64,000 bases of DNA from an uncultured Pseudomonadota bacterium (GCA_964429275.1 CAYSBJ010000003.1:129337-193336), one strand, 5' to 3'. Positions 977 through 38,893 are shown, numbered from the stretch's first letter. Notes: generated by a model not told the origin, from the letters alone. Made by a program: numbers and translations.

Positions 977-1054
977 GGATTGCCGCGCTTCGCTCGCAAC
1001 CGCCTTCGTTACTAGGGCCTGTCACGCCTGGGCACCTTTGGTGCGGCGGCGGAT
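977..1054. repeat. Palindromic repeat family copy (reverse orientation: arm GGATTGCCGCGCTTCGCTCGCAA plus CCGCC...GGCGGCGGAT module)
   Basis: This is the reverse complement of the module seen at 34836..34913 and 36428..36516 (CATCCGCCGCCGC...AAGGCG.GACA...CGAAGGCGGTTGCGAGCGAAGCGCGGCAATCC). It lies between two SBP paralogs. Confidence 0.7.
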
Positions 1055-4776: not shown

Positions 4777-7038
4777 CTATTCTTTAACAACATTCCCACA
4801 TTCTTTGTCAGGGCACGATAGCGTCTCAACGCCATCCTTTCCTTTGTTCACAATCATGTATGGCTGCGTACCACACTTTGAGCATGGGATCTCTTTAACA
4901 TCGTTAAACACGGCAAACTTACAGTTCGGGTAGCCGGTGCATCCCCAGAAGCTACCGCCACGCCAGGCGCGTTTGGCAATCTGGCTGCCGCATTTTGGGC
5001 AGGCCATTTTGAGTGTTTCTTGATGAATATGCTTACAGGCTGGGTAGCCAGAGCAGGAGATGAATGGGCCATATTTGCCAATACGTTTGACCATTTCTTT
5101 GCTACATTTTGGGCATTTAAGACCGGTGGTCTCTGGTTGTACTGGTTCGTTAGCTGTCAACATAATATTTCCTTGTTCGTCCCTCGTATAATTGCTCGTG
5201 AATGTGCAGTCGGGAAAACCCTCACATCCCACAAACTCGCCACTTCGTCCGAAGCGAATGTAGAGTGCTTTTCCACACTCCGGTTCTGGACAGGTGAGTT
5301 CGGTTTTCTGTGCTTCTTTTTTTCCGGGAGCGCCGCCAAATGCTTCAAGGTCTTTGCTGAATTTCTTGTAGAACTCTAGCAGTACCTTGTCGCGTTCAAT
5401 GGAACCCTCGGCGATTTTATCAAGCGACTGTTCCATGTTCGCGGTAAAGTCGACGTTAATAATATCGGGGAGATGGTGGGTGAGGAGTTTGTTCACCGAG
5501 CGCCCAAGTTCTGAGGGTGAAAACCGCTTGTTATCAACTGTGACGTAATTTCGTTTGATCAAGGTTGAAAGAATGGCGGCATATGTACTTGGACGACCAA
5601 TGTCTTTTTCTTTTAATTCTTTTACCAACGTTGCCTGTGTGTAACGTGCTGGTGGTTTGGTAAAGTGCTGTTTGCCTTCTCCTTTGTTCAGGTTGACTGC
5701 TTTACCGTCGGCAACTGATTTTGGAATGGTGGCTGATTTTTCCTCTTCATCTTCTTCTGCTAAGTAGACGTTCAAGAAGCCGTCGAACATAAGCGTAGAG
5801 CCGGTGGTACGAAATTCGTAGTCGCCGCCTTCAATTTGAACAGTACGTTGAAAAAATTCCGCTGCTTCCATCTGGCTCGCGACAAATCGCTTCCAAATAA
5901 GTTCGTATAACTTTGCTTGCTCGGTGCTCAAGTACGGGCCAACTTTGTCCGGGGTGTGGTTTACATCAATCGGACGAATAGCTTCGTGGGCGTCTTGGGA
6001 AGCCCCTTTCGCTTCGAATTGTCGCTCTTTGCTCGGGAGGTATTTACTGCCAAATGTATTTTTAATGTAACCCCGTACGTCAACCATCGCGGTTTCAGAA
6101 ATACGAAGAGAGTCGGTACGCATATAGGTGATAAGCGCTTCTGGATTGTCTTTATCGCGAAGGGGTAAACCTTCGTAGAGCTTTTGCGCTATTTGCATAG
6201 TGCGGTCAACCGAAAAACCAAGTTTATTAAATGCGTCTTGCTGAAGCGAGCTGGTCATAAACGGTGGCGCCGGTTGTTTCAGGCGCTTTTTGTCGGTGAC
6301 TTTGCTGATGGTATACGATGTTCCTTGCAGCTTGGCGATGATGGCATCGGCCCCTTCTTTGGTCGTAAGGTCCGGTTTTTTGCCTTTAATACGGGCAAGT
6401 TCTGCTTCGAATGTTTCACCGTCAATTACGAAAATACCGTGAATCGACCAGTATTCTTCTACTTTAAAGGCAACAATTTCATCTTCTCGCAAGCAGACCA
6501 GCATCAGGCCAACTGATTGCACGCGGCCAGCGGAGAGCCCCTTGGTAATTTTTTTCCATAAGATAGGGGATACCTCATAGCCTACCCAACGGTCAAGAAC
6601 CCGGCGGGCTTGTTGTGCATGCACTTTGTTTTCATCAATACTACGTTTGTCGGCAATAGCCTTTTCAACCGCGGGCTTGGTGATTTCGTTAAACGTTATA
6701 CGGTGAATAAGGCCTTTTTTGAGAACTTTTTCAATTTCTTGGCCGATGTGCCACGAAATGATTTCTCCTTCACGGTCAGGGTCAGAGGCCAAAAAGACTT
6801 CGTCGCAGGTGCGTGCTTGCTTGCAGATTTGGGAAATCGTATCGGCTTTATCTTCTAGCGGAACGTATTCGAGGTCAATATGGTTTTCCGGGGTTATGGT
6901 AACGCCAAGTTTATGTGGTGGCAAATCTTTGACATGGCCAAAGGTGGACATGATTTTGAATTCCTTGCCCAAAAACTTTCCAATCGTCTTGATTTTGGCA
7001 GGCGATTCAACAATAAGGAGTTTTGGCATGTATGGCAC
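4777..7038 (-). CDS. topA: DNA topoisomerase I
   Basis: 753 aa. It has an N-terminal TOPRIM (LLIVESPAKIKTIGKFLG), the active-site motif ITYMRTDS, and four C-terminal CxxC...CxxC zinc ribbons. Confidence 0.95.
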   Translation of the reverse strand: MPYMPKLLIVESPAKIKTIGKFLGKEFKIMSTFGHVKDLPPHKLGVTITPENHIDLEYVPLEDKADTISQICKQARTCDEVFLASDPDREGEIISWHIGQEIEKVLKKGLIHRITFNEITKPAVEKAIADKRSIDENKVHAQQARRVLDRWVGYEVSPILWKKITKGLSAGRVQSVGLMLVCLREDEIVAFKVEEYWSIHGIFVIDGETFEAELARIKGKKPDLTTKEGADAIIAKLQGTSYTISKVTDKKRLKQPAPPFMTSSLQQDAFNKLGFSVDRTMQIAQKLYEGLPLRDKDNPEALITYMRTDSLRISETAMVDVRGYIKNTFGSKYLPSKERQFEAKGASQDAHEAIRPIDVNHTPDKVGPYLSTEQAKLYELIWKRFVASQMEAAEFFQRTVQIEGGDYEFRTTGSTLMFDGFLNVYLAEEDEEEKSATIPKSVADGKAVNLNKGEGKQHFTKPPARYTQATLVKELKEKDIGRPSTYAAILSTLIKRNYVTVDNKRFSPSELGRSVNKLLTHHLPDIINVDFTANMEQSLDKIAEGSIERDKVLLEFYKKFSKDLEAFGGAPGKKEAQKTELTCPEPECGKALYIRFGRSGEFVGCEGFPDCTFTSNYTRDEQGNIMLTANEPVQPETTGLKCPKCSKEMVKRIGKYGPFISCSGYPACKHIHQETLKMACPKCGSQIAKRAWRGGSFWGCTGYPNCKFAVFNDVKEIPCSKCGTQPYMIVNKGKDGVETLSCPDKECGNVVKE

Positions 7039-21397: not shown

Positions 21398-21472
21398 GGA
21401 TTGCTTCGTCACTACGTTCCTCGCAAAAACGGCTTTCGCCGTCGCGTCATTGCGGGCGTAGCGCTGCAATCC
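21398..21472. repeat. Palindromic repeat family copy between batB and batC
   Basis: GGATTGCTTCGTCACTACGTTCCTCGCAA, then the hairpin ACGGCTTTCGCCGT, then CGTCATTGCGGGCGTAGCGCTGCAATCC. This is two arms in inverted orientation. Confidence 0.75.
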
Positions 21473-21474
21473 AT

Positions 21475-24366: not shown

Positions 24367-24460
24367 GTGCGGCGAAGGCGGGCGTAGCGCGGCAATCGGG
24401 TCTGATTGGACGTATCGAAGTACTCTCGATTGCTTCGTCGCACATGCTTCTCGCAATGAC
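24367..24460. repeat. Palindromic repeat family copy between batD and batE
   Basis: GCGGGCGTAGCGCGGCAATCG ... spacer ... CGATTGCTTCGTCGCACATGCTTCTCGCAATGAC. Confidence 0.7.
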
Positions 24461-33979: not shown

Positions 33980-34726
33980 ATGAAAAACAAAATGATGTTA
34001 TTACTGACGCTTATTGCGGCATCTTCTGGTGTTGTTGTAGCGAGTGATGCGGCTTCAAAAAGCGATGCGGCTCCAAAAAAGGCTGCATGGGTGGAAGGCG
34101 CTGATGCTCCAGCAGGCTACTTTAATCTTTACGGAGATAGCGACTTCGAAGCTGCAACTCCGCGTGAAGAGCTTCCGTTTCATAAACGTGCTGTTAACAA
34201 GCTTAAGAATCGTTATGATTTCTCAAACAAGAAGCGTTTTGCTCGTAATGTCACTGGTGACGTTATGAACGCTGGCGCTCTTGGTCTGTTGACTGCAGAT
34301 ATTTATAAACGTCGTAACAACGGCTTGGAATATTTGTTGAATAACACAGCTCTTGGTCAATCAGCGATCGGTAACAAGTACTTGCGCAAAAAATGGGCCC
34401 ATGTACTTGCATCTCTCTTGCAAACAATCGCCATTAACGAGGCTGCTGGTCTTGTATCTGGTGACGGTGGTCTTGCAAGTAATGGCGCTCGCTATGCTTG
34501 GGAGAAGGCTTTCGGCAAGAAAAAGAAACCTGCTTTGTTTGAAGAGAAAGCGACAGATGAAGACGATCAAGTTACTTACCCAGAACGTATGACGGCTGAA
34601 GACGCGGATGACCGTGATGATTCTATGATACTCGGTGTTGCGCCTCAAGATGAAGCTCGATACCAAGAAGCAATTGCTAAACTTCCTGCTGATAATAAAG
34701 CTCGTTTGGCATTGGCTCGTAAATAA
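33980..34726 (+). CDS. Hypothetical secreted protein
   Basis: The ORF runs 33887..34726. The likely start is the ATG at 33980 (MKNKMMLLLTLIAASSGVVVA), preceded by TAAGGGA. The C-terminus is acidic. Confidence 0.5.
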   Translation: MKNKMMLLLTLIAASSGVVVASDAASKSDAAPKKAAWVEGADAPAGYFNLYGDSDFEAATPREELPFHKRAVNKLKNRYDFSNKKRFARNVTGDVMNAGALGLLTADIYKRRNNGLEYLLNNTALGQSAIGNKYLRKKWAHVLASLLQTIAINEAAGLVSGDGGLASNGARYAWEKAFGKKKKPALFEEKATDEDDQVTYPERMTAEDADDRDDSMILGVAPQDEARYQEAIAKLPADNKARLALARK

Positions 34727-34755
34727 ACCTTTACTGGTTACTATTCACTACAAAG

Positions 34756-34785
34756 AAAAGACCTCAGGGAAACCTGAGGTCTTTT
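34756..34785 (+). terminator. Rho-independent terminator
   Basis: AAAAGACCTCAGG GAAA CCTGAGGTCTTTT. Confidence 0.7.
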
Positions 34786-34819
34786 CCCTTTTTACAACGA
34801 ATGTAGTTTAAAACATCAA

Positions 34820-34988
34820 GACCCGTCTTGCGGGTCATCCGCCGCCGCCCCTTTGGGGGCTAAGGCGAGACACGCTGTAGTCTCGAAGGCGGTTGCGAGC
34901 GAAGCGCGGCAATCCAGATTGTATGTAATATATCTAGGCAATTTTCTGCATTGCTTCGTTTCTCGCGATGACGACAGCTAACGCTGTC
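34820..34988. repeat. Full composite copy of the palindromic repeat family
   Basis: The order is: hairpin GACCCGTCTTGCGGGTC; CATCCGCCGCCGCCCCTTTGGGGGCTAAGGCGAGACACGC...CGAAGGCGGTTGCGAGCGAAGCGCGGCAATCC; spacer; CATTGCTTCGTTTCTCGCGATGAC; hairpin GACAGCTAACGCTGTC. Confidence 0.75.
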
Positions 34989-34994
34989 TCTCTT

Positions 34995-36350
34995 TCACCC
35001 TACCGGGAAAAGTTTTAAGAGTTGGTACACATTCTTGAATCGTTGGACATTGCTCCCGCTGGGGCATTGTTGCTCTTCTGAGACAAAAATGGTTTTGAGG
35101 CCGAAAGTATTGGCTTCTTTGATGCGTGATTCTACATAGCTTATTGGCTTAATGTGCCCGGTGAGGCTGATCTCTCCCAAGGCTACCGATTTTTCCGGGA
35201 GCGGGTGCTGAAAGAAGGAAGATAGCAGTGCTAAGGCGATTGCCAGGTCGCTTGCGCTTTCTTTGATGGAGCAGCCGCCGCTAACTTTAAAGAAGATATC
35301 CACACCGCTGAGGCCGACTTGCAGGTATTTTTCTAAAATGGCAGCGATGAGTGCTACGCGCTTCGGGTCAACCCCCGTTACAATGCGCTGAGGCATGGCA
35401 AATTTCGTTGGTACGCAGAGCGCCTGGAGTTCCAGGAGCAACGGTCGTGTGCCCTCAATGCTGCACGTTAGCGCGGAGCCGGGTGCGTGGGTGGCCTGGC
35501 TGAGCAGGTGGGCGTTAATATTTTGTACAGGCTGCAGGCCGCTCGGGGCCATTTCAAAAAAGCCAAGCTCATCAATGGTGCCAAAACGGTTTTTAACGGC
35601 GCGCAACATGCGCACTTGCCAGCGGTCCTCTCCCTGGAGGTAGAACACGCCGTCAACGATATGTTCAAGTAACTTTGGCCCAGCCATTTGCCCCTCTTTG
35701 GTAATGTGGCCGGTCACAATGACGGTAATGGTATGTTTTTTGGCCAGGGTCATGAGGAGAAAGCCGGCATATTTGAGGTGGCTTATGGAGCCAGGAACCG
35801 TTTGGCGGTCATCGTCTTGTACGATGCAGTTTTGAATGGAATCGATAATGAGGATGGCCGGTTTTTCCGCTTGGCCGGTGGCGATGATGGCTGCTAGGTC
35901 GGCACAGTCTGAAAAGCGCAGGCGCGGCGATGAAGTGATGCCAAGGCGGATGCCTCGTTGTTTGAGCTGGCTGCCGGATTCTTCAGAGGAAAAATAGAGC
36001 ACATCGTGCGACTGGGCCAGCGCTGCCGCTACTTGGAGGAGGAGGGTTGATTTTCCGATGCCGGGGTCGCCCGTTACGATGAGAAACGCGCCGGGCATAA
36101 GGCCGCCATCTCCCATGACGCGGTCCCATTCTTTGATGCCGCTTTGATAGCGTTCAATACGATTGTGGCCGCTTAATTCATCGAGCGGCACGACTGGGGT
36201 TGTTGCGGCCGCTGCACCAGTTGTCTGGCTTGCGGATGCTGAGTACGGTTCAAAAGAGTTCCAGGTTTTGCATTCCGGGCAACAACCGGCCCATTTTACG
36301 GCGATGTGGCCGCAGGTTGTGCATTTGTGTTGTGCGTTGTTTTTGGCCAT
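34995..36350 (-). CDS. radA: DNA repair protein RadA
   Basis: N-terminal zinc finger CTTCGH...CCPECKTW, Walker A GDPGIGKSTLLLQ, the KNRFG motif, and a Lon-protease-like C-terminal domain. Confidence 0.95.
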   Translation of the reverse strand: MAKNNAQHKCTTCGHIAVKWAGCCPECKTWNSFEPYSASASQTTGAAAATTPVVPLDELSGHNRIERYQSGIKEWDRVMGDGGLMPGAFLIVTGDPGIGKSTLLLQVAAALAQSHDVLYFSSEESGSQLKQRGIRLGITSSPRLRFSDCADLAAIIATGQAEKPAILIIDSIQNCIVQDDDRQTVPGSISHLKYAGFLLMTLAKKHTITVIVTGHITKEGQMAGPKLLEHIVDGVFYLQGEDRWQVRMLRAVKNRFGTIDELGFFEMAPSGLQPVQNINAHLLSQATHAPGSALTCSIEGTRPLLLELQALCVPTKFAMPQRIVTGVDPKRVALIAAILEKYLQVGLSGVDIFFKVSGGCSIKESASDLAIALALLSSFFQHPLPEKSVALGEISLTGHIKPISYVESRIKEANTFGLKTIFVSEEQQCPSGSNVQRFKNVYQLLKLFPVG

Positions 36351-36427
36351 GGGTTCCCCGTTTTTGCTTTGTTTTTATGTGGATTGCTATTTTTGTGTTT
36401 CTTCTATGGATTATAGACGGCTGACAG

Positions 36428-36605
36428 CCATCATCCGCCGCCGCACCTCTGGTGCTAAGGCGTGACACGCCGAAGTATCGAAGGCGGTTGCGAGGAACGT
36501 AGTGACGTGGCAATCTATTCTTACAATTGTTTTCTATTTTTACAATCTACATGGATTGCTTCGTCGGCTTCGCCTTCTCGCAATGACGCGCTTTTTGGGC
36601 GCGTC
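36428..36605. repeat. Repeat array unit 1 (CCGCC module, arm A, spacer, arm B, hairpin)
   Basis: CATCATCCGCCGCCGCACC...CGAAGGCGGTTGCGAGGAACGTAGTGACGTGGCAATCT; a 36-nt spacer; GGATTGCTTCGTCGGCTTCGCCTTCTCGCAATGAC; hairpin GACGCGCTTTTTGGGCGCGTC. Confidence 0.8.
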
Positions 36606-36662
36606 TGGATGAATTTTTAGGGAAGCCCACTCGTTACTGCGTGCTTCTTGTCTGAGTTATAT

Positions 36663-36792
36663 GACGGCGTTTAGCCGTCTTTGCGAGCGTAGCGCGGCAA
36701 TCCATTCTTATACTTGGTTTCTATTCTTACAATCTACATGGATTGCTTCGTCGGCTTCGCCTTCTCGCAATGACGTGCTCCAAGGACACGTC
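36663..36792. repeat. Repeat array unit 2 (short, MITE-like)
   Basis: Hairpin GACGGCGTTTAGCCGTC; TTTGCGAGCGTAGCGCGGCAATCC; spacer ATTCTTATACTTGGTTTCTATTCTTACAATCTACAT; GGATTGCTTCGTCGGCTTCGCCTTCTCGCAATGAC; hairpin GACGTGCTCCAAGGACACGTC. Confidence 0.85.
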
Positions 36793-36825
36793 TGTAGAAT
36801 ACTATGATTTTTTTTGTTTTTTATA

Positions 36826-37258
36826 GACGACGGAGTCGTCATTGCGAGGAACGTAGTGACGTGGCAATCCATCTTATATTCTCACTCATCCTACAATACT
36901 ATCAAACAAGTCATGCCATTCTGGATTGAAAGAAGTTATAAGGTCAACTTTCTTTTGACGAGAGCCTCCTTTGATTGCTTTCTCGCGCTCAATAGCACTT
37001 TTCATAGATGGACATTGTTCGTAGTAAACTAAAAGAGTACAACCATAGCGGGAGGTAAAACCTTTCTTGGGAAGGCCTTCTCTGTGTTGATACACTCGTT
37101 TTATGAGATTAGAGGTGACGCCGGTGTAGAGCGTACCGTTCTTTTGGTTAGTCATTATATAAACGACTGGGATTTTGGTCATTTGGTTATTACGTTTTTA
37201 TATGCTTTTACATGGATTGCTTCGCGGTGCTCGCAATGACGCGCTTTTTGGGCGCGTC
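36826..37258 (-). mobile_element. Candidate autonomous element: GIY-YIG nuclease gene bracketed by repeat arms A and B and their flanking hairpins
   Basis: Hairpin GACGACGGAGTCGTC, then arm A ATTGCGAGGAACGTAGTGACGTGGCAATCC (36841..36870), then a 343-bp core carrying ORF 36886..37182. Arm B GGATTGCTTCGCGGTGCTCGCAATGAC (37214..37240) and hairpin GACGCGCTTTTTGGGCGCGTC follow. The outer 11-bp inverted repeat is GTCATTGCGAG / CTCGCAATGAC. Confidence 0.55.
36886..37182 (-). CDS. Small GIY-YIG nuclease family protein (COG2827 / YhbQ-UPF0213-like)
   Basis: 98 aa: VVYIMTNQKNGTLYTGVTSNLIKRVYQHREG...YGCTLLVYYEQ...AIEREKAIKGGSRQKKVDLI. It has the GIY...YxG, R, H and E motifs. Confidence 0.85.
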   Translation of the reverse strand: MTKIPVVYIMTNQKNGTLYTGVTSNLIKRVYQHREGLPKKGFTSRYGCTLLVYYEQCPSMKSAIEREKAIKGGSRQKKVDLITSFNPEWHDLFDSIVG

Positions 37259-37285
37259 TGAATGAATACTATGACTTTTTTTATA

Positions 37286-37407
37286 GACGACGGAGTCGTC
37301 ATTGCGAGCGTAGCGCGGCAATCCATTCTTATACTTGGTTTCTATCTTTACAGCTTACATGGATTGCTTCGTCGGCTTTGCCTTCTCGCAATGACGACTT
37401 CGTCGTC
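37286..37407. repeat. Repeat array unit 4 (short, MITE-like)
   Basis: Hairpin GACGACGGAGTCGTC; ATTGCGAGCGTAGCGCGGCAATCC; spacer ATTCTTATACTTGGTTTCTATCTTTACAGCTTACAT; GGATTGCTTCGTCGGCTTTGCCTTCTCGCAATGAC; hairpin GACGACTTCGTCGTC. Confidence 0.85.
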
Positions 37408-37442
37408 CATAAAGGCTATGGGAATAATTTTAGTGTTACGTA

Positions 37443-37487
37443 AACGCGCGGTGAAGCGCGTCTTTGCGAGCGTAGCGCGGCAATCCA
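37443..37487. repeat. Solo arm A with hairpin, abutting the tdk stop
   Basis: ACGCGCGGTGAAGCGCGT followed by CTTTGCGAGCGTAGCGCGGCAATCC. No partner arm B is present. Confidence 0.7.
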
Positions 37488-37499
37488 TTCTATTCAGAC

Positions 37500-38117
37500 T
37501 TACCCCTGCCTTTGCAGCTCCTGCGCTTTTTTTGCATAAAAATCGACTGGGCGGTTAATGGAAAAACAGGTGCGGCATCGGGCTTCGTAGGAATCTTCTG
37601 CGCCGACTTGAATGAGTGGGTCATGCCAGTCAGCCGGTTTGCCGTTGACCAAGCGTTGCGTCCAGCGGGCGTCTTTGCCACATTGCATGCAAATAGCAGA
37701 AAGCTTATGCACGCTGTCAGCAAGGGTCATGAGGTGTGGCATAATGCCAAATGGCTGGCCGCGAAAATCGGTGTCCAGGCCGGCAGCGATAACGCGTACG
37801 CCGCGATCAACCAGCTCTTCGATAACGCTGAGAATATCGAGCGGGAAAAATTGTACTTCGTCGATGGCTACTACTTCAATGTCGAGAGGAATAGCAGCGC
37901 GCATGCTTTCTACATCATCAGCAGCGGCGGCTTCTAAAACGCGGCCAGCATGCGAATTGATGCAGGCGGTGTGAACCCGATTGTCGATACGGTGCTTGAT
38001 AGTAATAACTGCTTGCTTTGCATATTCAGCGCGGCGGACCAGGCGCATCAGCTCTTCGGTTTTGCCGGAAAACATGCAGCCGGCTACCACCTCGAGGGAG
38101 CCTTTTCTAGATTTCAT
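37500..38117 (-). CDS. tdk: Thymidine kinase (copy B)
   Basis: P-loop GCMFSGKTEEL, IDEVQFF, and zinc-ribbon cysteines CMQCG...CRTC. Its start ATG overlaps the stop of the upstream tdk (ATGA). Confidence 0.9.
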   Translation of the reverse strand: MKSRKGSLEVVAGCMFSGKTEELMRLVRRAEYAKQAVITIKHRIDNRVHTACINSHAGRVLEAAAADDVESMRAAIPLDIEVVAIDEVQFFPLDILSVIEELVDRGVRVIAAGLDTDFRGQPFGIMPHLMTLADSVHKLSAICMQCGKDARWTQRLVNGKPADWHDPLIQVGAEDSYEARCRTCFSINRPVDFYAKKAQELQRQG

Positions 38118-38752
38118 AAAAATATCCTTTGTTCTGGTCTTCTTTCTATGACAAAGCAGCTACGACAGCGGGGTTCATACGTTTCGGCTGCGCCGACAAG
38201 CATGAGCGGATCGTCATATTTTGCCGGTTCGCCGTTTACAATGCGCTGTGAGTAGTGGGAATTTTTGCCGCAGGCACCGCAGATCGCGTTGAGCTTGGTT
38301 ACGCTGTCGGCTAATGCCATGACCGTGGGCATAACGCCAAACGGTTCGCCGCGAAAATCAAGGTCAAGGCCGGCAACAACAACACGTTTGCCTTGTTCAA
38401 CCAAGCTGACGATAACTGGTACAATTTCTTTAGGGAAAAACTGGAGTTCGTCGATGCCAATAACGTCAATGGCGGGCGATGCGAGGTTTAAAATCTTTCG
38501 AATGCCTTGTGGCGTATTGTCGATGGGGTGTGCAGAGCGCTCTTGGCCATCGTGAGAGAGGATGCATTGGTGGTGTGCACGTGAATCAATGAGGTGCTTG
38601 ATAGTAAGAACTGTTTGCTTTGCAAATTCAGCGCGACGAAGACGTCGCATAAGTTCTTCTGTCTTACCAGAAAACATTGATCCGCAAATTACTTCAAGGC
38701 GGCCCGGGCTTTTTTTTGCCGGTACATATACGGCGTCGCGTGTGTCGGTCAT
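38114..38752 (-). CDS. tdk: Thymidine kinase (copy A)
   Basis: The ORF runs 38114..38854, and the likely start is MTDTRDAVY at 38752. Motifs GSMFSGKTEEL, IDELQFF and CGACG...CRSC are present. Confidence 0.9.
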   Translation of the reverse strand: MTDTRDAVYVPAKKSPGRLEVICGSMFSGKTEELMRRLRRAEFAKQTVLTIKHLIDSRAHHQCILSHDGQERSAHPIDNTPQGIRKILNLASPAIDVIGIDELQFFPKEIVPVIVSLVEQGKRVVVAGLDLDFRGEPFGVMPTVMALADSVTKLNAICGACGKNSHYSQRIVNGEPAKYDDPLMLVGAAETYEPRCRSCFVIERRPEQRIFL

Positions 38753-38893
38753 ATCGGTATCCCTGTTCTGAGAGTAGAGGAAAAACACTGAGGTGATAAC
38801 GACCTTGGGGTCATCATCGGCGCGTAGTCTATTCGAGAAACCCTTCCAAGGCAATGCTCTTGCCCCGAAAAAAGGGGCGACCTCGGAGGCATT

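Follow-up and report, generated by a model that had tools for sequence, protein, structure and literature searches.

Mini-hairpins pair the terminal tag of CGTC-REP/Ssn-type repeat arms in a Candidatus Dependentiae lineage and may modulate cleavage by the resident nuclease

Small hairpins abut the arms of an inverted repeat in a 64,000-nucleotide stretch of DNA from an uncultured bacterium (GCA_964429275.1 CAYSBJ010000003.1:129337-193336, hereafter the window). The arms are CGTC-tagged repetitive extragenic palindromes (REPs), an element that is already known and is also called the Ssn-related motif (SRM, NTS-like), and two of them flank a gene for a small GIY-YIG nuclease. In each mini-hairpin, the tag that terminates the repeat arm is paired with an upstream anti-tag, and the pairing is specific to each copy. 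The best explanation for this feature is that the hairpins provide a structured single-stranded DNA (ssDNA) flank in the Ssn/CGTC-REP system and would thereby modulate cleavage by Ssn. We favor this explanation with guarded confidence.

RESULTS AND DISCUSSION

Anatomy and statistics of the mini-hairpins

Arms of the form TTGCGAG-N6-24-GCAATC occur 13 times in the window, whereas 0.12 are expected by chance. Ten of the 13 lie within positions 34893-37485, and the remaining three begin at 978, 21399, and 24428. When read 5′ to 3′ on the strand recognized by Ssn, the hairpin beside an arm consists of an anti-tag (GACG plus 2-3 nt), a loop, 2-3 nt followed by the CGTC tag, and then ATTGCGAG of the arm itself. 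The anti-tag is located 9-17 nt 5′ of the tag and pairs with the tag and the adjacent 2-3 nt, which yields a stem of 5-7 bp that abuts the SRM hairpin. In the predicted DNA fold, the mini-hairpin and the arm hairpin form two abutting stem-loops, and the mini-hairpins alone have values of -4 to -8 kcal/mol. All nine hairpins listed in a sequence-only reading of this region were verified at their positions, and two further examples were found at 37444 and 21429 (Table 1).

At 9 of the 13 arm ends in the window, a perfect stem of 5 bp or more starts within 2 nt of the arm; stems of 6 bp or more are present at 3% of background positions. The arm end at 24457 lacks a hairpin. Additional stems were obtained from two relatives. 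One is a strain represented by loci L124 and L134 (∼88-90% DNA identity), which carries GACGCG..CGCGTC and an imperfect GACAAC..GTCGTC. The other is L138, whose nuclease is 83% identical and which carries GACGAC-TGGC-GTCGTC and ACGCCC-GATTTTA-GGGCGT. In an unselected list of tags from the window, L124, and L138, 10 of 19 are held flush in perfect stems of 6 bp or more, a count that rises to ∼15 of 19 if an offset of 1-3 nt or one mismatch is permitted. As a control, the 8 nt proximal to each tag were exchanged among copies. The paired fraction then falls to 11%, and therefore the complementarity is copy-specific. These counts, together with the new stems in L124 and L138, bear out the earlier claim that the inner stems vary from copy to copy yet remain complementary. 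Within the lineage, the hairpin observation is correct and statistically solid.

The three genomes contain ∼11 distinct hairpins. The loops of these hairpins are strand-asymmetric: 8 of the 11 have G...A loops on the tag strand, and none has such a loop on the opposite strand. The arms' own loops share this asymmetry. Among the listed loci, which span many phyla, GNA triloops (GAA, GCA, GTA, and GGA) are found on the tag strand 64 times, versus two of the complementary TNC type. The inner stems of the arms exhibit clean covariation, and the GNA asymmetry fits the published strand specificity of Ssn.

A role for the hairpins in RNA, either as transcription terminators or as stabilizers of 3′ untranslated regions, is also conceivable. 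In a lax scan for intrinsic terminators (GC-rich stem plus T tract), only 2 of ∼12 mini-hairpins pass (34820 on the minus strand and 34973 on the plus strand), and the remaining ∼10 have no T tract. Moreover, the orientation of the hairpins follows that of the arms and not that of the neighboring genes. GNA triloops closed by a C-G pair are stable in DNA, as in d(GCGNAGC) mini-hairpins, which also counts against a function in RNA. The CGTC-REP survey does report REPs as RNA-level elements of 3′ untranslated regions that are enriched downstream of genes (PMC3733652), whereas SsnA does not bind RNA (PMC11893778). We consider an RNA-level function improbable.

Restriction of the hairpin to one lineage

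The radA and tdk clusters of the window are named Candidatus Dependentiae. For comparison with other taxa, at least 120 loci were collected by scanning a single genome of each species for GGATTGCTTCG-N6-24-CTCGCAATGAC, and a metagenome scan used a second arm variant. The taxa among the arm matches listed include Alpha- and Gammaproteobacteria, Bacteroidia, Chloroflexi, Patescibacteria, Helicobacter, and others. In these taxa, stems of 6 bp or more adjoin 3.1% of 225 genome arm ends (2.8% background) and 1.8% of 272 metagenome arm ends (2.2% background) among the listed loci. Most of the positives are trivial, being places where two arms meet tag to tag. The hairpin is therefore no general property of the repeat family: A background frequency in 497 arm ends indicates that the mini-hairpin is specific to the lineage of the window.

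One exception outside Dependentiae was observed. The locus L045 (Candidatus Limimorpha, Bacteroidales) has tag-pairing hairpins on both ends of a dimer near position 5746 (GACGC-TCC-GCGTC and GACGCG-AAG-CGCGTC). The loops of these hairpins are not of the G...A form on the tag strand.

Identity of the repeat arms

The inverted dimers among the listed loci end in (C)GTCA...TGAC(G). In 123 dimers that represent many phyla, conservation of these ends is 93-99%, and it does not extend further. In the same dimers, the tag that precedes ATTGCGAG has frequencies of C 0.71, G 0.99, T 0.99, and C 0.99, and CGTC is present in the window arms as well. The sequence-only reading was thus correct that the outer GAC/GTC of the mini-hairpins is constant, but this constancy is not an independent feature: The outer letters are constant because they are the conserved terminal tag of the repeat family. 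No direct repeat that could represent a target-site duplication extends beyond the termini in 111 of the 123 dimers, and longer terminal inverted repeats are absent from them. In this respect the dimers differ from miniature inverted-repeat transposable elements of DDE insertion sequences, which are flanked by target-site duplications.

In all 13 window arms a C follows the palindrome on its 3′ side (GCAAT-C), and the GTC on its 5′ side belongs to the end conserved in the 123 dimers. Most of the window arms continue from ATTGC...GCAAT into CCA or CCAT. In the arm interior, invariant ATTGC-GAG and CGAA-GCAAT enclose a hairpin whose stems of 5-8 bp are wholly different among copies.

These characteristics can be compared with those of the CGTC-REP superfamily (Di Nocera, De Gregorio and Rocco, BMC Genomics 2013, PMC3733652), whose members carry CGTC (or TGTC/CCTC) at one end of the palindrome, open their stem with A-T pairs, have an unpaired 3-nt CCA tail, and form inverted dimers. 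Neisseria dRS3, Rickettsia RPE-4 and RPE-6, and Bradyrhizobium repeats belong to this superfamily, and CGTC-1 and CGTC-4 were equated at the DNA level with RPE-6 and RPE-4, respectively (PMC3733652). The repeats examined here share the tag, the A-T stem start, the CCA tail, and inverted dimers with spacers of 20-100 bp. They also share the occurrence of mosaic clusters and of heterodimers whose arms differ in inner stems or loops. In contrast, the CGTC-REP tag was described as unpaired (PMC3733652), whereas 10 of 19 tags in the window lineage are fully paired. Families 1-4 of the CGTC REPs have stems of 8-9 bp and loops of 4-5 nt, whereas inner stems and loops vary more widely in the present repeats. 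Finally, no dedicated enzyme was found for the CGTC REPs (PMC3733652), whereas a GIY-YIG gene lies between arms in the window.

A possible precedent for the mini-hairpins comes from A. tumefaciens. The survey describes CGTC-3 dimers with small stem-loops at the spacer ends between inverted repeats that are 20-23 bp apart (PMC3733652). Going by this description, the arrangement is like that of the window, where the order is arm, hairpin, 25-57 nt spacer, hairpin, and arm. No connection between the CGTC-3 stem-loops and a nuclease cut site is drawn in that survey.

A 30-nt arm of the window (GATTGCTTCGTCGGCTTCGCCTTCTCGCAA, at 36554-36583 and 36741-36770) is identical, variable inner stem included, to an arm in Candidatus Tisiphia (L123, ending at 2642). 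This identity hints at an exchange of repeat or nuclease between intracellular bacteria, namely Dependentiae and a Rickettsiales endosymbiont.

A putative resident ssn gene

The gene between two of the inverted arms encodes a 98-aa protein and is best described as a putative resident ssn homolog in an NTS-ssnA-NTS layout. Its only match in Pfam is PF01541 (E = 3e-16, residues 6-78). The translation contains the catalytic residues Y8 (VYI), Y19 (LYTG), and E65/E67 (IEREK), with a Tyr/Tyr/Glu spacing like that of Y6, Y17, and E64 in SsnA of N. meningitidis. The protein has 7269 homologs that are ∼60-68% identical across phyla. The closest solved structure is the UPF0213 protein 1ZG2, with E = 9e-5. 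The label YhbQ/UPF0213 was dropped because this match is weak and because the Ssn paper places repeat-flanked proteins in cd10448 (PMC11893778).

Arms flank the gene within 500 bp on both sides (37214-37237 on the 5′ side and 36841-36871 on the 3′ side), and the same is true in Tisiphia and in L141. Furthermore, the same arms stand beside the gene in all eight homolog loci that were opened, which represent seven taxa (Sphingomonas mesophila, an ENA contig, Candidatus Tisiphia, two Dependentiae relatives, Berkiella, Methylophaga, and a JGI contig). A tblastn search for GIY-YIG genes in the 120 arm-selected genome loci listed gave none, and therefore most arms are far from the gene.

Ssn proteins were described as the first site-specific nucleases that act on ssDNA alone, and their development into tools is under way (Chenal et al., Nat Commun 2025, PMC11893778). 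Their genes code for single-domain GIY-YIG proteins of ∼94 aa (cd10448) and are flanked by NTS/SRM repeats. Ssn binds the repeat hairpin solely as ssDNA and solely on the tag strand, 5′-CGTC-ATT...AAT-C, and its cut falls in the variable flank, a few nucleotides 5′ of the tag. Binding depends critically on the C after the palindrome, and cleavage on the three nucleotides before it. In Neisseria, Ssn restricts transformation by DNA that bears NTS (PMC11893778).

The window shares with this system a single-domain GIY-YIG protein (∼94-98 aa), inverted CGTC-ATT...AAT-C repeats on both sides of its gene, the catalytic spacing, an oriented hairpin, and the multiplication of repeats in intergenic clusters. 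The core differs, since it is ATTGCGAG...GCAAT here and ATTCCCGCG...CGGGAAT in the Ssn paper (PMC11893778). The 5′ flank of the tag, which is non-conserved and variable in that study, forms a tag-pairing hairpin here, and the host is a member of Dependentiae. Strand-specific cleavage of ssDNA is known for the characterized members (PMC11893778) and would apply to the homolog in the window by analogy.

Chenal et al. likened NTS-ssnA-NTS to IS200/IS605 and REP/RAYT (PMC11893778). The features in common with the REP/REPIN/BIME-RAYT and IS200/IS605 systems are an enzyme gene between inverted hairpin repeats, non-autonomous inverted dimers, a lack of target-site duplication, mosaic arrays of alternating orientation, recognition of hairpins in ssDNA, and cleavage a short distance from the hairpin foot. 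RAYT systems use an HUH/Y1 transposase and a GTAG tag, whereas a GIY-YIG nuclease and a CGTC tag are present here, and Ssn is not known to carry out transposition.

The hairpins lie within a block missing from a relative

A comparison by blastn with L134 revealed that positions 34795-35002 of the window (208 nt) correspond to 5 nt of the relative, at the 3′ flank of radA. The extra block opens and closes with a hairpin, and between the two lie, in order, an element termed module M, an arm, a spacer, and a degenerate arm. A GAC..GTC palindrome is absent from the empty site of L134, in which CCCTTTTTA is joined directly to TCCCGCCGG. Because both hairpins are inside the extra block and the empty site is free of a palindrome, the hairpins travel with the repeat.

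This result bears on the alternative offered in the sequence-only reading, according to which the repeat inserts preferentially beside pre-existing GAC...GTC palindromes. At the one site compared, such a palindrome was not available. In addition, the tag of the repeat itself supplies one side of every stem, a unit is bordered by two different hairpins, and the arm ends of other taxa have no excess of hairpins. Given these observations, a preference for existing palindromes is very improbable.

Two further differences were seen at this site. The repeat block at 34795-34997 separates radA from a bidirectional terminator. In the relative, radA stops at a TAA that overlaps the T tract of the terminator, whereas in the window it stops at a TGA and the C-terminus is changed from PAG to PVG.

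Growth and reshuffling of the array

The tdk-radA spacer measures 1070 nt in the window but only 119 nt between the same anchors in the relative strain, where it consists of an arm, a hairpin, a 57-nt spacer, a hairpin, and an arm. The inter-hairpin spacers of the window are homologous to one another and to this spacer of the relative. A 33-nt perfect direct repeat (CGTCTTTGCGAGCGTAGCGCGGCAATCCATTCT, at 36676-36708 and 37459-37491) bounds a block of 783 nt that includes the nuclease gene and two repeat units. This block is absent from the relative strain, which suggests that it was gained or lost through recombination at an arm. At the tdk end, the arm types and hairpins at the same position differ between the two strains. 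The same hairpin can be found beside different arm types, and vice versa. Together with the comparisons of block and spacers, the sharing of hairpins among different arms suggests that the array has grown and been rearranged through recombination at the conserved cores. The stems themselves look like whole-module replacements that arose through recombination rather than the products of stepwise compensatory substitutions.

Such a history raises the possibility that the hairpins have no function and are by-products of duplication, unequal crossing-over, and gene conversion, with their pairing maintained by intra-strand template-switch mutation. Two of the stems are indeed part of longer exact or near-exact duplicates (the 32-nt repeat D7 and the 38-nt repeat D4), and both the 33-nt arm repeat around the 783-nt block and the exchange of hairpins between arm types are signs of module shuffling, as are the homologous spacers. 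However, template switching is strand-symmetric and leaves the G...A loops and the flush anchoring at the tag unexplained. The strand-asymmetric loops therefore argue that the palindromes are not maintained by mutation purely. Also contrary to this view are the ∼11 distinct stems across three genomes and the existence of equally repetitive arrays in Tisiphia and Sphingomonas that have no excess of hairpins. Inert by-products are thus an unlikely, although not negligible, source of the feature. If the hairpins are inert, then the array is just one more mosaic REP cluster.

A possible role in Ssn cleavage

If the properties of characterized Ssn proteins (PMC11893778) extend to the enzyme encoded in the window, then the resident Ssn would bind every arm in its single-stranded state and make its cut immediately 5′ of the tag. 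The mini-hairpins would act at the ssDNA level on the strand that Ssn recognizes. There they would sequester the GTC on which cutting depends, and the scissile position would come to lie within a loop or next to one. Each hairpin is a part of the repeated unit and moves with the repeat, and hairpin, core, spacer, and module M appear to be shuffled by recombination at the cores.

The geometry of the hairpins is compatible with this scheme. For all 10 flush hairpins, a hypothetical cut 3 nt 5′ of CGTC falls within the loop or where loop and stem meet, because the stem extends merely 2-3 bp past the tag. The position of 3 nt assumes that the published 28-nt oligonucleotide equals the full NTS, and the text of that paper permits ∼3-6 nt. 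The most likely effect of the hairpins would be to limit or position the self-cleavage of resident repeats, because Ssn is inactive on duplex DNA and cannot cut without the GTC. As an alternative effect, the scissile bond could be presented in the loop. A more specific version, which we advance only tentatively, is a cis-acting gate in which the tag is kept paired in ssDNA. The resident repeats could then still be bound by their own Ssn, but cutting would be blocked or would occur solely in the loop upon melting.

The same position of the cut site could be accounted for in another way. After an Ssn nick, fold-back or template-switch synthesis during repair might copy the tag-proximal nucleotides in reverse and leave an anti-tag behind as a scar. 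The stems go 2-3 bp past CGTC, which approximates the distance from tag to cut for Neisseria SsnA (PMC11893778), and the feature is bound to the single site of known nuclease action. A simple fold-back, however, does not predict loops of 3-9 nt with unrelated sequence, and the anti-tag is not followed by a partial inverted copy of the arm. The excess of palindromes is also absent in other lineages that bear Ssn. We judge repair scars to be quite improbable.

Several points weigh against a role in modulating Ssn cleavage. For this organism the role is predicted from sequence, and the Ssn assignment was made feature by feature from published descriptions. The cut site is carried over from Neisseria SsnA (∼3-6 nt 5′ of the tag), and the sites of homologs vary (PMC11893778). 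The published SRM string, HGTCWYN(0-2)YYVSBRHN(0-5)WNVSBRGN(0-2)RNCYNB, has no exact match in the window. The short arms are 1-2 substitutions away from this string and the long arms at least 4, and the NTS consensus, used as a positive control, is matched. Several of the hairpin copies are recent duplicates, leaving few independent observations. Three of the 11 distinct hairpins have loops other than G...A, and the comparison of empty sites covers a single site. Lastly, pairing of the tag could inhibit cleavage, position it, or be neutral for it.

The sequence-only reading had proposed that selection acts on the hairpin as a recognition or cleavage structure. This part of the proposal fits the biochemistry of Ssn (PMC11893778) and the asymmetry of the loops, but the stepwise compensation that it implied is not what the stems resemble. 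What is new here is a tag paired with an upstream anti-tag in a lineage-specific manner, with the expected cut site in or beside the loop and with loops of the G...A form.

If the hairpins do form such a cis-acting gate, then they would be a device for self-protection or dosage that evolved in one intracellular lineage and the first regulator of Ssn cleavage known from nature, and they would supply a design rule for switchable Ssn substrates. If modulation of Ssn cleavage is the true function, then the action of Ssn could be tuned in cis, by cells or by the repeats, through a cut flank that had counted as unconstrained. The findings also extend the Ssn/CGTC-REP system, as recognized from its genes and repeats, to Candidatus Dependentiae and to a repeat core outside the published search string. 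Because this core is missed by the string, surveys that rely on it may undercount the family.

Organization of the array and other features

A typical unit consists of a mini-hairpin, arm A, a spacer of ∼30 nt (replaced in one unit by the 98-aa open reading frame), arm B, and a second mini-hairpin. Arm A has the form GTCATTGCGAG...GCAATCC, and arm B, its inverted copy, has the form GGATTGC...CTCGCAATGAC. Successive units are set apart by AT-rich spacers of 25-57 nt. The features of the array are compiled in Table 1.

Table 1. Positions of mini-hairpins, repeat arms, module M copies, and the nuclease gene in the window
Feature	Coordinates	Strand	Comment
SRM arm (978-999) and module M (1000-1052)	978-1052	-	
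Tag-to-tag arm pair	21398-21473	unassigned (.)	Hairpin ACGGC-TTTC-GCCGT at 21429-21442 in between
SRM arm without flanking hairpin; degenerate partner arm	24428-24456	-	
Mini-hairpin GACCCG-TCTTG-CGGGTC	34820-34836	+	3′ GTC is tag of next repeat; inside 34795-35002
Module M, 55 nt, CCGCCGCCGC...GAAGGCGG	34839-34892	+	Between tag GTCAT and repeat core
SRM arm TTGCGAG-CGAAGCGCG-GCAATCC	34893-34916	+	
Degenerate partner arm (ATTGCTTCGTTTCTCGCGATGAC on + strand)	34950-34972	-	
Mini-hairpin GACAGC-TAAC-GCTGTC	34973-34988	-	Loop is GTTA on arm strand
Weak hairpin GAC-GGCT-GAC-AGCC-ATC	36416-36432	+	5′ of second module M copy; -2.7 kcal/mol
SRM arm TTGCGAGGAACGTAGTGACGTGGCAATC	36488-36517	+	Module M (36435-36487) directly before
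SRM arm (GGATTGCTTCGTCGGCTTCGCCTTCTCGCAAT on + strand)	36553-36584	-	Ortholog adjoins radA in L124
Mini-hairpin GACGCGC-TTTTTGG-GCGCGTC	36585-36605	-	-8.1 kcal/mol; CT-to-TC change in L124 ortholog
Mini-hairpin GACGGC-GTTTA-GCCGTC	36663-36679	+	
SRM arm T-TTGCGAG-CGTAGCGCG-GCAATCC	36680-36704	+	In 33-nt perfect direct repeat with 37459-37491 (D3)
SRM arm	36740-36771	-	
Mini-hairpin GACGTG-CTCCAAGGA-CACGTC	36772-36792	-	
Mini-hairpin GACGAC-GGA-GTCGTC	36826-36840	+	In 32-nt exact duplicate of 37277-37308 (D7)
SRM arm, 3′ side of nuclease gene	36841-36871	+	
ssn-like gene, 98-aa single-domain GIY-YIG nuclease	36886-37182	-	Between two inverted arms
SRM arm, 5′ side of nuclease gene	37214-37237	-	Gene strand: CGTCATTGCGAGCACCGCGAAGCAATCC
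Mini-hairpin GACGCGC-TTTTTGG-GCGCGTC	37238-37258	-	Duplicate of 36585 (D4, 38-nt repeat)
Mini-hairpin GACGAC-GGA-GTCGTC	37286-37300	+	Duplicate of 36826
SRM arm	37301-37325	+	
SRM arm	37361-37392	-	
Mini-hairpin GACGAC-TTC-GTCGTC	37393-37407	-	Loop is GAA on arm strand
Mini-hairpin ACGCGC-GGTGAA-GCGCGT	37444-37461	+	1 nt off tag end; -7.5 kcal/mol
Solo SRM arm	37463-37487	+	Abuts tdk 3′ end; different arm type at orthologous L124 position

At the gathering score, Rfam yields only tRNAs in the window. A search of positions 34700-37600 with E values up to 10 gave only noise, and neither the arms nor the hairpins nor module M matched a family. Protein domains of Rickettsia palindromic elements were considered as another candidate, and the translated arms had no match to them in NCBIfam and Pfam.

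In three arms, a module of 55 nt (module M) intervenes between the core and the tag with its hairpin. Module M is GC-rich, spans 55-57 nt, and comprises CCGCCGCCGC, a small hairpin GCACC-NNN-GGTGC, and TAAGGCG...GAAGGCGG. Copies are located at 34839-34892, 36435-36487, and 1000-1052 (minus strand) in the window and at 8974-9032 in the relative L138. It occupies the junction of tag and palindrome in the window, whereas it is within the arm loop in L138. Among the 266 loci listed, module M is confined to the Dependentiae lineage. It looks like an element nested in an element.

The arm near the start of radA is broken after GGATTGCT by a block of 168 nt (hairpin, module M, arm, and spacer) and resumes at a second GGATTGCT; the two copies are at 36383-36390 and 36551-36558. 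Either an insertion into the arm or an unequal exchange among arms could have produced this split. Beyond the array, two thymidine kinase paralogs are arranged in tandem at 37500-38117 and 38114-38854, both on the minus strand. Their stop and start codons overlap, and this arrangement is kept in the relative.

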